Positions 9,123 to 11,365 of a stretch of 64,000 bases of DNA are shown piece after piece. The notes below the pieces were generated by a model. It had not been told where the DNA came from. It saw only the letters and a list, made by a program, of their open reading frames with translations, and searched no databases. The stretch comes from Cyanophyceae cyanobacterium (lineage in GTDB: Bacteria; Cyanobacteriota; Cyanobacteriia; Cyanobacteriales; JBHJGN01), in assembly GCA_050331735.1 (NCBI GenBank), contig JBHJGN010000006.1, positions 41,856 to 105,855 on the forward strand, written 5' to 3'. Within the stretch, counting starts at the first letter, position 1. Each line of letters starts with the position of its first letter. A program made the translations under genes and the position numbers.

Positions 9123-9656
9123 ATGAACACTCACGAACTTTTGAGTCGGTATGCCGCTCAAGAATTAGATTTTGCAGAGGTTAGTCTGCATGAAGCGAGG
9201 CTTGAAGGAGCTAGTCTAAGCAGAATTAATTTAACTAGAGCTGACTTAAGTAGTGCCGATTTTAGACGAGCGGACCTGAGTGGTGCCTGTTTGCAGCAGG
9301 CCAATCTAACAGATGCCGATTTAGGGGAAGCTAATCTAGTCGGAGCTAATTTAATTGAAATTAATTTAATTGGTGCGGAGTTGAATCAGGCTAATTTGAG
9401 GTGTGCAGACTTAAGTGGAGCAGACTTACGCTGTGCTAACCTCCAGGGAGCCAATTTGAGCGGAGCCAATCTCACCGATGTGGATGTGAATGGTGCTGAC
9501 TTGAGCGGCGCTGATTTAACCAACGCTAAACTAGGAGGCACAGATTTAAGCGTGGCTCATTTAGAAGGGGCAGATCTGACGGGAAGCACCGCTGATGAAA
9601 GAGACAGAAGACAAGTCGGTACCTCGCATCGCTGGGTAACTTGGGCTGGTCAATAA
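9123..9656 (+). CDS. Pentapeptide repeat protein
   Basis: Tandem A(D/N)LxG repeats; AAGGAG RBS upstream. Confidence 0.93.
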   Translation: MNTHELLSRYAAQELDFAEVSLHEARLEGASLSRINLTRADLSSADFRRADLSGACLQQANLTDADLGEANLVGANLIEINLIGAELNQANLRCADLSGADLRCANLQGANLSGANLTDVDVNGADLSGADLTNAKLGGTDLSVAHLEGADLTGSTADERDRRQVGTSHRWVTWAGQ

Positions 9657-9902
9657 TTGATGTAGAGTTCAGATAGTCTAACTATTAGGGAATATACGCT
9701 AGATTGTGCTCCTTATCTAGTAGGAGGCGATCTCTTTACCTGCGCCTTAGCACTTTTTCGCAACCCAGAGCTAGGCTTTTTACCGTTACCTTCCTCAAGG
9801 AGGATGACTGACCCCAAGACAACTCATCAAGATAGATGTCTACCTTAAATTGTCAGCAAGGCTCTTGAGCTATCCTAAGTCGAGCTACTGTTGTCGGCTC
9901 TA

Positions 9903-9984
9903 TGGGCAGAGTCGGACTCGAACCGACATGACCGAAGCCGCCACATTTTGAGTGTGGTGCGTCTACCAATTTCGCCATCCGCCC
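9903..9984 (-). tRNA. trnL-CAA: tRNA-Leu (anticodon CAA), no intron, CCA not encoded
   Basis: Reverse complement GGGCGGATGGCGAAATTGGTAGACGCACCACACTCAAAATGTGGCGGCTTCGGTCATGTCGGTTCGAGTCCGACTCTGCCCA folds as a class II cloverleaf with CTCAAAA anticodon loop and GGTTCGAGTCC T-arm. Confidence 0.97.
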
Positions 9985-10838
9985 TGGATGTTAACTTTTC
10001 GATTATAGTCCTTTTGCCGACTTTCTAACAAGGATTGGTATTGTTGCGAACTGGCCCAGCGGTCGATTTCTCGGGCCCGCAGAACTGGAACTGGATGAGT
10101 TAACTGAGCAGTTTGCGCACTTTTGAGCATCTCGCCCAGTTGAGTATTGCTGATAGCGTCGTAATCTCTTGCCTGAGCGATAAACGCTTCTAAATTGAGT
10201 TGAGGCGCTAGCGTTGGCGAACCGCCTGCCAGCTTCATCAGCACCGACATTACCACTTTCGGTTCCTGAATGGCCAGCAGCGCGGCGCGATCGCAGCTAA
10301 ACTCAGCACAGCGTAACCAGGCCATCATCTGTTCCTGAAGCGACTGAGCAATGACGGCTCCCCAGGTAGGCAGTAAATTGGCTGCGAGGACCATCAGATT
10401 AGCCAACGTCAGATAAACACCGTGTTCGCACTTAAGATGCCCCAGTTCGTGCGCCATCACGGCCTGAATTTCTTCAGGGGTCAGCATTTCAATCAGAGAC
10501 GTGTGCAGCACCATAAACGGTTGCTTCCCCCTCATGGCGAAGGTGTAAGCGTTGGGGACCGGATTTTGCTGGACGTAAAGCTGAGGCGGCTCTAGATCGA
10601 GCACCCGACAAGCTTCTAACAGCAGCTTATGGAGATGAGGTAATTGGTTGCCGCTGACTTGAACGCTAGAGGCAATGTTGTTGAGGTAGAAAAACTGCTC
10701 GCCCACAGGACCAAGCAGGCTGCGAACTGCTAAATCTAACCCCGGCAACTGCTTCAACGCTTGGGTAGCCTGAAAATCTAGCGGATGACGAAATTCGTTG
10801 GCGTTGAGACCAATCAGTTGAGTTTTGGAGATGCTCAT
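9963..10838 (-). CDS. M48 family zinc metallopeptidase; 3' end overlaps tRNA-Leu
   Basis: HELGH (HExxH), AEFSCDRAA and THP motifs. Confidence 0.93.
   Translation of the reverse strand: MSISKTQLIGLNANEFRHPLDFQATQALKQLPGLDLAVRSLLGPVGEQFFYLNNIASSVQVSGNQLPHLHKLLLEACRVLDLEPPQLYVQQNPVPNAYTFAMRGKQPFMVLHTSLIEMLTPEEIQAVMAHELGHLKCEHGVYLTLANLMVLAANLLPTWGAVIAQSLQEQMMAWLRCAEFSCDRAALLAIQEPKVVMSVLMKLAGGSPTLAPQLNLEAFIAQARDYDAISNTQLGEMLKSAQTAQLTHPVPVLRAREIDRWASSQQYQSLLESRQKDYNRKVNIQGGWRNW
10002..10031 (-). promoter_or_regulatory. Putative sigma70-type promoter for tRNA-Leu inside the M48 CDS
   Basis: Minus strand TTGTTA-N18-TATAAT; perfect -10 at 10007-10002, 17 nt upstream of the tRNA 5' end. Confidence 0.6.
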
Positions 10839-10945: not shown

Positions 10946-11365
10946 TCAAGAGTCGAACAGCCAGCCTTTCACTCGATGCATACTTTCCCAGTCTGGTTTT
11001 CTCGCCAAACCGTCGGCAATATTTTCGGCAATATCGCTACGAATTTGAGCATCGAGTCCGAGCATCTGCTGAACGGCCTGGATATGCTGACGCACTCCTG
11101 TTTGTCCGGCATCTAGCATGGCAAGAGCCAAGTTAATTCGGGCTTGGGGCGCTTGGGGATCGAGTTTTACTCCCTTTTGCGCCGCTTTACAGGCTTTGTC
11201 GGGTTTGTCTGTTAATAGATACAGCCACGCCAGACAGCTCCAGGCAGAAGCGTTTCTGGGCGCGCGATCGCAAACGTCTTGAAATACGGGAATCAGGCTT
11301 TGAGGTGATTCTCCGGCTTTATAGCGTTCTAACCCTTCGTCAAAGAGAGCAGCAGCTTGGGACAT
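10946..11365 (-). CDS. TPR-like conserved protein
   Basis: AWSCLAWLYLL..KPDKACKAAQKGVKLDPQAPQARINLALA helical repeat pattern. Confidence 0.8.
   Translation of the reverse strand: MSQAAALFDEGLERYKAGESPQSLIPVFQDVCDRAPRNASAWSCLAWLYLLTDKPDKACKAAQKGVKLDPQAPQARINLALAMLDAGQTGVRQHIQAVQQMLGLDAQIRSDIAENIADGLARKPDWESMHRVKGWLFDS

Follow-up and report, generated by a model that had tools for sequence, protein, structure and literature searches.

The window analysed here, a stretch of 64,000 nucleotides from a cyanobacterial contig, carries on its minus strand an M48 metallopeptidase gene whose 3' end lies inside a tRNA-Leu(CAA) gene. The features of this junction are as follows:

9963..10838, minus strand: ORF of the M48 metallopeptidase, 291 aa plus TAG (ORF list; PF01435, 75 bits)
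10437..10451, minus strand: HELGH zinc-binding motif (H130-E131-x-x-H134), from the ORF translation
10026..10031, minus strand: putative -35 box TTGTTA, read as Leu-Leu, followed by an 18-nt spacer
10002..10007, minus strand: putative -10 box TATAAT, read as Tyr278-Asn279 (10/12 consensus match)
9985..10001, minus strand: 17 nt from the -10 box to tRNA +1, read as the linker RKVNIQ
9963..9984, minus strand: 22 nt used twice, as nt 1-22 of the tRNA and as the 3' end of the ORF
9966..9983, minus strand: tail codons GGC GGA TGG CGA AAT TGG (G-G-W-R-N-W)
9963..9965, minus strand: TAG stop, which is also the final three D-loop nucleotides of the tRNA
9903..9984, minus strand: tRNA-Leu(CAA), from ARAGORN and Rfam RF00005, sole genomic copy

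The ORF ends with CAG GGC GGA TGG CGA AAT TGG TAG (QGGWRNW-TAG). Nucleotides 1-22 of the tRNA (9984..9963) provide the third base of the Gln codon (position -7), the six codons of GGWRNW and the stop, and this segment spans the acceptor 5' strand, U8, the D-stem and the D-loop. Sequence, ORF list, ARAGORN and RF00005 agree on the same-strand overlap of 22 nt that had been announced in the original prediction. Reading in frame also bears out that the M48 ORF contains no stop before the TAG within the tRNA. Among the 39 tRNAs called by ARAGORN in this genome, tRNA-Leu(CAA) is present in one copy. Furthermore, 75 tRNA-and-frame combinations of the genome have a stop inside the tRNA, and a single one of them is entered by an ORF of at least 100 aa (291 aa here, the next longest in the same scan being 77 aa). 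The overlap is not due to chance: the genome has no second tRNA-Leu(CAA) and no second ORF of this size that ends inside a tRNA.

The protein is a predicted M48 metallopeptidase, as indicated by its profile, its HExxH motif and its modelled fold. Pfam PF01435 (Peptidase_M48) matches residues 68-261 with 75 bits, for a cut-off of 20.3, and H130, E131 and H134 are invariant in 95 aligned homologs. With the AlphaFold2 model (pLDDT 87.7), the top Foldseek matches are ZMPSTE24, Ste24p, an HtpX domain, BepA and BlaR1 (best E 2.7e-4, probability 1.0, 13-18% identity, TM 0.25-0.49). A sequence search of solved structures (PDB) gave no match at E <= 0.01. The ORF appears to belong to the homolog family of Synechocystis sll1280 and plant PGM48. 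PMC12223511 pairs sll1280 with Arabidopsis PGM48 (AT3G27110) as homolog and lists sll1280 in the proteome of the cyanoglobule (cyanobacterial lipid droplet), which indicates that an sll1280-type protein is made. No entry for sll1280 was found among the searched supplements of PMC5386190. Like the window protein, sll1280 and PGM48 are M48 metalloproteases of about 290 aa. In Synechocystis, the gene is followed by a tRNA, as at the window locus, and the two are listed in one transcriptional unit (TU1125); the putative orthology of sll1280 to the window protein rests on family, size and this adjacent tRNA. Unlike the window protein, eukaryote-like representatives (at most 57% identity) have N-terminal extensions and none of them has a W-x-N-W end.

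The tRNA scores 57.1 bits with RF00005 (gathering score 29). Both ARAGORN and the alignment point to a class II tRNA: the anticodon is CAA and the long variable arm can be seen in the alignment. In 99 junction tRNAs, 99.2% of the 1980 cells of the cloverleaf are paired, compensatory (both-side) changes occur in 12 of the 20 pairs and the covariation score was reached by none of 500 shuffles. These data indicate that the tRNA-Leu(CAA) at the junction is a functional gene whose structure is kept by compensatory change. Some of its constraints are directly visible in the protein: acceptor pairs 5-7 covary in these 99 tRNAs and dictate tail residue -5 (Gly, Lys or Glu). U8, A14, G18, G19 and A21 are universally conserved tRNA bases.

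We then considered how widely the overlap and the tail are conserved. Loci were classified with ARAGORN in linear mode in two sets: set A consists of the window and the 80 best named loci (81 loci) and set B of the 145 remaining orthologs from 401 genomes sampled evenly across the phylum. In these sets, which may share genomes and whose loci are phylogenetically non-independent, set A includes 68 loci with overlap and 13 loci that kept the tail but are uncoupled from the tRNA, and set B includes 88 loci with overlap, 46 with the tail but without overlap, 10 without tail and one at a contig end. The geometry of the overlap is identical to that of the window in 68/81 and 88/145 loci, respectively. 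A scan with a D-arm pattern was discarded as a source of counts, for it also matches other tRNA-Leu genes. Overlap is seen in 21 of the 28 coded families having an ortholog and is the sole state in 46 of 75 genera; one genus (g36) holds both states, genome G202 with overlap and genome G182 without. The GGWRNW ending that the original prediction ascribed to cyanobacterial M48 homologs is indeed found in 100 of the best 120 database orthologs, and all 120 end with W[RS]NW. Among representatives at 57% identity or less, the W-x-N-W tail was found in 0/150. Within the genome, no other ORF of at least 100 aa ends with W-x-N-W. Since the M48 ORF alone (1/4853) ends so, a C-terminal signal shared with other proteins was ruled out. 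A description of the M48/tRNA overlap or of the GGWRNW tail was not found in the literature searched, subscription-only papers lying outside that search.

In a tree obtained by a quick LG+G4 search and rooted on six distant outgroups, the tail-bearing clade has an SH-aLRT of 87, the overlap locus L091, on a long branch, being placed outside. The orthologs without tail occupy the basal branches of this outgroup-rooted tree. Since they are basal and since all 150 representatives with an identity of at most 57% are tail-less, the tail appears to be a derived state. Locus L081 was considered as an example of the ancestral state, with adjacent but non-overlapping genes, and rejected: the tree nests it within the overlap clade on a long branch, so that a secondary loss is more likely.

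According to the tree and to the classification of loci, the tRNA moved away from the protease gene in at least 4-6 independent lineages. In one large family, the overlap is absent from 40 of the 45 sampled genomes and the tail is retained; this family accounts for 40 of the 46 uncoupled loci of set B. When sets A and B are pooled (156 overlap loci and 59 uncoupled loci), W-4, N-2 and W-1 are each kept in 59/59 uncoupled loci, whose Gly, Arg and Asn tail codons have been recoded. For instance, Arg is kept in 50/59 of them through six codons (CGA/CGG only in overlap loci). The stop is TAG in 156/156 overlap loci versus TAA in 30, TAG in 28 and TGA in one of the uncoupled loci. Relative to the tRNA-encoded tail, uncoupled loci show 111 synonymous and 23 nonsynonymous codon differences. 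The residues read from the -10 box behave differently: Tyr at -14 is found in 9/59 uncoupled versus 121/156 overlap loci and Asn at -13 in 6/59 versus 105/156. Over the 40 nt after the stop, the median identity to the tRNA is 9/40 in uncoupled and 29/40 in overlap loci. Since W-x-N-W is kept with recoded codons and the promoter-derived Tyr-Asn is lost, the comparison argues that the tail is under protein-level selection. Moreover, covariation in the tRNA and synonymous recoding of the peptide after uncoupling indicate a dual-use sequence, of which both the tRNA reading and the peptide reading are under purifying selection. A local stop loss, envisaged in the original prediction as an alternative, is inapplicable since the tail is retained by selection. 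The tail is not indispensable, however, since two loci inside the tail-bearing group lack it: in L081 the stop lies about 70 nt before the tRNA and in L154 a premature TAA lies 17 nt before it. AlphaFold2 places residues 279-291 mostly with pLDDT <50 and hence offers no structural rationale for the tail. It would be a flexible Trp-rich C-terminal motif, acting most likely as an interfacial lipid or membrane anchor or as a short recognition motif.

The conservation of the tail could have other reasons. It may be a neutral passenger, conserved solely through the tRNA bases beneath it and unused by the protein. The constraint on the tRNA explains every tail position in overlap loci, the tail is not placed by AlphaFold2 and the L081 and L154 lineages do without it. 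However, W-x-N-W persisted in all 59 loci after at least 4-6 independent uncouplings, with codons drifting synonymously and the stop changing, whereas the linker is highly variable and Tyr-Asn vanishes after uncoupling. This reading is therefore disfavoured and we regard it as highly improbable. An RNA-level reason for the tail in uncoupled lineages, either a cis-acting remnant of the tRNA 5' half or an mRNA helix masking the tRNA, would be more improbable still. Remnants of the tRNA 5' end do reach beyond the stop in two uncoupled loci (nt 5-33 in L039 and nt 2-28 in L074), and the D-arm pairs with the upstream Ala-Ser-Ser codons when the mRNA context is folded by MFE. However, the synonymous changes preserve the peptide and not the RNA sequence, the fold is no better than that of shuffles (z = -0.5) and the apparent codon bias in favour of the helix is a lineage effect (AGY in 5/5 overlap members of family f6, TCN in 9/12 uncoupled loci of set A). 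The masking helix was rejected on the last two grounds, the codon difference tracking lineage and not overlap state. Selection on the peptide itself remains our preferred explanation.

The best sigma-70-type site of the region, TTGTTA/TATAAT, matches the consensus at 10/12 positions and lies 17 nt before tRNA +1. An exact TATAAT is found in 63/68 (set A) and 56/88 (set B) overlap loci and in 0/59 uncoupled loci; TTG precedes it at a spacing of 17 or 18 nt in 61/63 and 51/56 of the loci with an exact TATAAT. The last conserved helix of the M48 protein ends with the Leu-Leu read from the -35 box, and the linker positions read from the 17 nt between the -10 box and tRNA +1 have a high amino-acid entropy. 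Furthermore, the relocated tRNAs of L060 and L064 retain a -10 box 17 nt before +1. The tRNA-Leu(CAA) thus has its own conserved predicted promoter within the ORF, with a consensus match in this organism. From the geometry of this promoter, transcription of the tRNA is predicted to start near 9994-9996, with a 5' leader of about 10 nt. In Synechocystis 6803, the transcriptional-unit data available from PMC4195498 show that TU1125 starts 25 nt before sll1280 and holds sll1280 followed by the tRNA 6803t12. The same data place an internal start 851 nt downstream of the start codon of sll1280, near the gene end, a position that can be related to the tRNA only approximately. By analogy, this internal start supports an own promoter for the tRNA.

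Three RNA runs matched 6% of the sampled words and the contigs obtained from them stem from relatives. Of these contigs, one has its first base 10 nt upstream of tRNA +1 and another at +1 itself; these are weak hints, such contigs being able neither to show transcript ends nor to prove one single transcript.

In the original prediction, the tRNA would be processed out of a read-through transcript. The overlap on which this model was built is upheld, being on the same strand and anciently conserved, but the reliance of the tRNA on read-through is not, since a conserved promoter lies in the ORF and moves with the tRNA on relocation. The junction was also proposed to be a regulatory device, in which a race between translation and RNase P cutting at tRNA +1 sets protease output: the cut would deprive the mRNA of its stop and of the six codons before it, ribosomes would stall and the product would be tagged by tmRNA. 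Several data are in line with such a device. The overlap is on the same strand without an earlier stop, the genome carries RNase P RNA (248 bits) and tmRNA (125 bits), and sll1280 and its tRNA belong to one transcriptional unit in Synechocystis 6803, as tabulated for TU1125 in PMC4195498. One RNA-library contig of a relative spans 83 nt of the M48 gene and the whole tRNA, a weak argument as a contig is not proof of a single transcript. For the E. coli secG-leuU cotranscript, PMC2241853 describes an RNase P cut at tRNA-Leu +1 and a subsequent decay of the secG mRNA in <30 s. However, the own conserved promoter of the tRNA implies that tRNA supply is not tied to the protease mRNA. In addition, the overlap broke up on at least 4-6 occasions, 40 of the 45 sampled genomes of one family lacking it but retaining the tail, and selection on the tail suggests that the full-length product is what matters. 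The separate promoter and the tolerated uncouplings make the coupling dispensable. We therefore consider a regulatory device plausible but unlikely; some RNase P cleavage may well occur at the junction without any regulatory role. It is similarly doubtful that a tRNA-born W-x-N-W motif functional in a lipid-droplet or thylakoid protease is combined, in the cyanobacterial majority that still has the overlap, with an output set by a race between ribosomes and RNase P. In such a race, terminating ribosomes would keep the tRNA unfolded and tmRNA would clear the losers. If true, the level of a photosynthetic-membrane protease would be tied to tRNA-processing capacity; competition between RNase P and translation would be a new link from tRNA processing to protease dosage.

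We favour, as a probable scenario, an ancient overprinted junction where a promoter and a tRNA came to be read as a protein tail that was later selected, the tRNA being made mainly from its own promoter. The M48 ORF would have come to extend into the adjacent tRNA-Leu(CAA) when the class began to radiate, some basal lineages having already diverged. The extended ORF reads through the promoter, the leader and the first 22 nt of the tRNA gene: Leu-Leu comes from the -35 box, Tyr-Asn from the -10 box, the variable linker from the leader and G-G-W-R-N-W from tRNA nt 2-19, invariant D-loop bases supplying the TAG stop. The tRNA would be transcribed mainly from the internal promoter, and the protease mRNA, starting upstream, would have to extend at least 22 nt into the tRNA. 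W-x-N-W may long have been frozen by U8, A14, G18, G19 and A21 and then recruited into protein function. Since both readings would be selected, the overlap would be locked in place for as long as the 22 nt are not duplicated. In lineages with such a duplication, the protein copy would have been retained while gathering synonymous changes, and the Tyr-Asn that stems from the promoter would have been lost. An RNase P cut of the read-through mRNA at tRNA +1, giving a non-stop mRNA, is a predicted side-effect of this arrangement.

The junction provides a clean and datable case of a new coding sequence that arose from a structured RNA gene and was afterwards selected. Its natural uncouplings separate DNA-level constraint (Tyr-Asn lost) from protein-level constraint (W-x-N-W kept). 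Moreover, an overlap can lock in without regulatory purpose, which can be used as a null model for other overlaps. There are also practical consequences. Any deletion, truncation or C-terminal tag of the sll1280-type gene in an overlap species would also strike the promoter and the 5' end of tRNA-Leu(CAA). Because no other tRNA-Leu(CAA) gene was found here, such knock-outs could be lethal or give confounded phenotypes. Annotation pipelines that trim or flag CDS-tRNA overlaps could likewise mis-call the M48 gene.

Besides sll1280/PGM48, three known systems can be compared with this locus. In E. coli secG-leuU, the tRNA follows the secG stop after a 14-nt spacer and RNase P cutting of the cotranscript destabilises the upstream mRNA (PMC2241853). 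As in the window, a protein gene is followed by a same-strand tRNA-Leu. Cotranscription is shown for secG-leuU, whereas in the cyanobacterial case it may occur, as the Synechocystis TU1125 table and a bridging contig from a relative hint. The spacer of 14 nt in E. coli compares with -22 nt here, so that cutting at tRNA +1 would cost the mRNA its stop and six codons. Unlike that of secG-leuU, the cyanobacterial tRNA has its own predicted promoter inside the ORF. The conserved internal promoter and the internal start of TU1125 suggest that it does not depend on the upstream promoter.

In animal mitochondria, the ends of mRNAs are set by the excision of tRNAs, with which genes overlap on the same strand; mitochondrial mRNAs often have incomplete stops that are completed by polyadenylation. 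The overlap of human mitochondrial tRNA-Tyr and tRNA-Cys is 1 nt (PMC4787750). The same-strand overlap of gene and tRNA is common to this punctuation and to the window locus. However, the latter has a complete TAG inside the tRNA, as do all 156 overlap loci, unlike the incomplete mitochondrial stops. Moreover, its host is a free-living bacterium with a 5.6-Mb genome rather than a compacted organelle, and the peptide encoded by the tRNA appears to be itself selected.

SgrS/SgrT and RNAIII/hld are overprinted dual-function RNAs, in which one stretch yields a structured RNA and a peptide. The likeness lies in a single nucleotide stretch with two readouts that are both selected. In contrast to these RNAs, the RNA is here an ordinary single-copy tRNA and the peptide forms the C-terminus of an enzyme that is much older, instead of a small stand-alone ORF. 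Furthermore, at this locus, natural uncouplings allow both constraints to be separated.

The 22 nt shared by the M48 peptidase ORF and the tRNA-Leu(CAA) gene have two properties, being both the 5' part of a functional tRNA and codons under selection. The region is organized as follows:

10946-11365, minus strand: TPR-repeat protein (139 aa), upstream neighbour of M48 on the same strand, 107-nt gap
9963..10838, minus strand: M48 ORF, 291 codons, ending ...CAG GGC GGA TGG CGA AAT TGG TAG
10031..10026, minus strand: sigma-70-like -35 box TTGTTA, 18-nt spacer to the -10 box
10007..10002, minus strand: -10 box TATAAT, ending 17 nt before tRNA +1
9903..9984, minus strand, as the M48 ORF: tRNA-Leu(CAA) (ARAGORN and Rfam RF00005, 57.1 bits vs 29)
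9123-9656, plus strand: pentapeptide-repeat protein (177 aa), downstream neighbour, opposite strand

The first nucleotide of the tRNA is the last base of a Gln codon of M48, nt 2-19 are the codons of the C-terminal tail GGWRNW (core W-x-N-W) and the TAG stop is formed by nt 20-22, the last nucleotides of the D-loop. As the original prediction had it, the coordinates of the ORF and of the tRNA agree on a 22-nt overlap, and the ORF has no earlier in-frame stop upstream of the tRNA. This tRNA is single copy among the 39 ARAGORN tRNAs of the genome. The overlap is not due to chance: of the 75 tRNA-and-frame combinations of this genome with a stop inside the tRNA, just one, that of M48 (291 aa), is entered by an ORF of at least 100 aa, the runner-up being 77 aa long. 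Rfam also gives 'Plastid-ycf2 5UTR RNA' below threshold (26.2 bits vs a gathering threshold of 65.7; 9902-9984, plus strand, antisense to the tRNA), a match that probably reflects a tRNA-Leu(CAA)-like sequence in that plastid family rather than a real element.

All 120 best database orthologs (78-100% identity) end with W[RS]NW, and the GGWRNW ending initially given for homologs is present in 100 of them. The named ones are all cyanobacterial except one MAG labelled 'Chloroflexaceae bacterium' (JAAUTE010000019.1, locus L008), which has a cyanobacterial M48/tRNA junction (82% identity) and groups among cyanobacteria in our tree; this MAG was probably misbinned or mislabelled. Junctions were classified with ARAGORN in linear mode in two sets of loci: the window together with the 80 loci of named genomes that matched best (set A), and 145 other orthologs (E < 1e-100) found in 401 genomes sampled evenly across the phylum (set B). 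The overlap proved to be conserved, as had been proposed: the identical 22 nt are found in 68 loci of set A and 88 of the 145 of set B, the others being uncoupled, i.e. with the tail but without the overlap (13 and 46, respectively), devoid of the tail (10 in set B) or at a contig end (one in set B). Pooling gives 156 overlap and 59 uncoupled loci, which come from related, non-independent genomes and may include duplicates, as the two sets may share genomes. The overlap occurs in 21 of the 28 coded families having an ortholog and is the sole state in 46 of 75 genera; the M48 query found no ortholog in the 29 members of f26, a family with small genomes.

Among 99 distinct junction tRNAs, standard pairs account for 99.2% of 1980 pair cells, 12 of the 20 pairs show changes on both sides and the covariation score was matched by none of 500 shuffles, a pattern indicating a functional tRNA. 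Acceptor pairs 5-7 covary (e.g. G5-C/U or A5-U; A7-U, G7-C or C7-G). Since tRNA bases 5-7 make up codon -5 (counted back from the stop, -1 being the last residue), the corresponding residue is Gly, Lys or Glu. Likewise, nt 1 is always G and codon -7 therefore ends in G in 156/156 overlap loci (21/59 uncoupled). One locus (L148, G148:C115:4900-6574) carries three tandem tRNA-Leu(CAA) after M48, the junction copy and two others, located about 290 and 1260 nt further on; hits of the D-arm pattern point to a second copy some 1.1 kb downstream in other members of this coded genus (G388, G119 and G216). A 460-nt ARAGORN 'tmRNA' ending exactly at the junction tRNA (L079, 2967-3426) was most likely triggered spuriously by this tRNA.

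The tRNA has its own promoter, located within the M48 ORF. The TTGTTA/TATAAT pair, a consensus match in the window's organism, is the best sigma-70-like site of the region (10/12 matches); no consensus promoter was found in the 107-nt gap upstream of M48. In frame, TTGTTA is read as Leu-Leu, at the end of the last conserved helix of M48, and TATAAT as Tyr278-Asn279. Exact TATAAT is present in 63/68 overlap loci of set A (in 54 of them at precisely 17 nt, in the others displaced by whole codons) and 56/88 of set B (47 at 17 nt), with TTG at 17/18-nt spacing in 61/63 and 51/56 of them, respectively. A further 5 and 30 loci carry a TAnnnT variant, and two set-B loci have no -10 box 14-23 nt before the tRNA. 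In two loci where the tRNA has been relocated (L060 and L064), the -10 box is still 17 nt before +1; another (L094) has TTGACA with a less clear -10 spacing. Since the -10 box is conserved in overlap loci and kept by relocated tRNAs, this promoter belongs to the tRNA, and the conserved Tyr-Asn is its shadow in the protein. In overlap loci, codon -7 is AAG in 119/156 and codon -8 is NCC (CCC, TCC, GCC, ACC) in at least 74/156 (9984-9989 in the window); this bias may reflect an RNase P leader preference or the initially transcribed region of the promoter.

Some lineages have lost the overlap but kept the tail. Over the 40 nt past the stop, the median identity with tRNA nt 23-62 is 9/40 in the 59 uncoupled loci vs 29/40 in overlap loci; only L039, which retains a remnant, reaches 19/40. 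TATAAT is absent from the final 72 nt of the ORF in all 59, and Tyr at -14 and Asn at -13 fall to 9/59 and 6/59 (121/156 and 105/156 in overlap loci). In overlap and uncoupled loci alike, the ten linker positions ahead of the tail vary strongly, with an entropy of about 2-3.4 bits. Trp-4, Asn-2 and Trp-1 are nevertheless each found in 59/59 uncoupled loci. Arg-3, present in 50/59, uses all six Arg codons (CGA/CGG only in overlap loci), three and four different Gly codons are seen at the two Gly positions, and stops are TAA (30), TAG (28) or TGA (1), vs TAG in 156/156 overlap loci. Uncoupled tail codons differ from the tRNA-encoded ones by 111 synonymous and 23 nonsynonymous changes; in one clade of seven loci, the peptide is uniformly LGW[ST]NW although five different codons encode its Leu at -6. 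Hitch-hiking or an RNA-level reason for tail conservation does not predict this pattern. Since the two Trp and the Asn remain invariant despite changes in codons, stop, linker and Tyr-Asn, W-x-N-W is under purifying selection at the protein level, which predicts such a pattern.

The protein is a member of PF01435 Peptidase_M48 (75 bits vs a cut-off of 20.3) with a HELGH motif. The AlphaFold2 model, based on an alignment of 95 sequences, has a confidently predicted core (mean pLDDT 87.7, pTM 0.88); residues 279-291 are mostly below pLDDT 50 and the tail is therefore predicted to be flexible. The closest solved folds are M48 enzymes (ZMPSTE24, Ste24p, HtpX domain, BepA and BlaR1; 13-18% identity), and a PDB search at the sequence level gave no match. 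The putative Synechocystis ortholog sll1280 is described as an M48 metalloprotease homologous to Arabidopsis PGM48 and is listed in the proteome of cyanoglobules (lipid droplets) (PMC12223511). The modelled flexible, Trp-rich C-terminus suggests a putative interfacial lipid anchor or short recognition motif. Among the 4853 ORFs of at least 100 aa of the genome, only M48 ends with W-x-N-W.

The tail is absent from all 150 listed representatives at ≤57% identity, many of which have N-terminal extensions. A quick IQ-TREE phylogeny (LG+G4) was built from 101 full-length orthologs and six outgroups taken from these representatives, all rows being retained and the last 22 residues of tail-bearing rows cut. 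Four tail-less families (f22, f27, f28 and f32) lie at its base and one group holds 91 of the 92 tail-bearing rows, with moderate support at this key node (SH-aLRT 87); the overlap locus L091, on a long branch, falls outside. Loss of the tRNA from the junction with retention of the tail requires at least six changes, at least four being forced by well-supported branches. Uncoupled loci of set B belong to five coded families (f6, f7, f12, f14 and f25), one large family being uncoupled in 40/45 genomes from 16 genera, and both states coexist within one genus (g36). Uncoupling seems to have come about by insertion or duplication: M48 and the tRNA are separated by an FMN-dependent dehydrogenase gene in L060 and by a 151-aa ORF in L064, tRNA 5' remnants extend past the M48 stop in L039 and L074, and six set-B loci have their tRNA 108-391 nt downstream. 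Two members of the tail-bearing group lost the tail: in L081, about 70 nt separate the stop from the tRNA; L154 (G216:C77) has a single premature in-frame TAA 17 nt before the tRNA, which could be a real loss or a sequencing error, other sampled members of its genus having the full overlap. L082, ending with LAKNWW on weakly tRNA-like DNA, is of ambiguous class. We infer that the M48 ORF was extended into the neighbouring tRNA gene, whose invariant bases would have kept W-x-N-W-stop constant until the protein came to use this tail. From then on, separation would have needed duplication of the shared segment, which could explain why the overlap has persisted for so long and why escapes from it were repeated and tolerated.

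As far as searches of an open-access library show, this arrangement is unpublished. In Synechocystis 6803, table S1 of PMC4195498 lists a transcriptional unit, TU1125 (minus strand, 1096684 to 1094002, 25-nt 5'UTR), containing sll1280, 6803t12 (tRNA), sll1281 (psbZ), sll1282 and sll1348, with internal starts at 1095808 and 1095531. The unit runs from the tRNA into psbZ, whereas the downstream arrangement differs in the window. The first internal start is 851 nt past the sll1280 start codon, i.e. inside the last few dozen bases for the ORF sizes seen here (852-876 nt); although its position relative to the tRNA is approximate, it sits where the conserved promoter predicts one. These table entries argue for a read-through unit and, at the same time, for the tRNA having a start of its own. 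For the window's organism, the RNA runs screened yielded nothing usable.

RNase P RNA (248 bits) and tmRNA (125 bits) are found in the window's genome. By analogy with E. coli secG-leuU, read-through protease transcripts are predicted to be cut by RNase P at tRNA +1, and a race between translation and RNase P could then be regulatory. However, such a role seems unlikely, since the tRNA does not depend on the long protease transcript and many lineages manage without the overlap. In secG-leuU, RNase P is reported to cut at +1, where the stop keeps a 14-nt spacer behind it, and the mRNA is then degraded in less than 30 s (PMC2241853); in contrast, the same cut at the M48/tRNA junction would give a non-stop mRNA.
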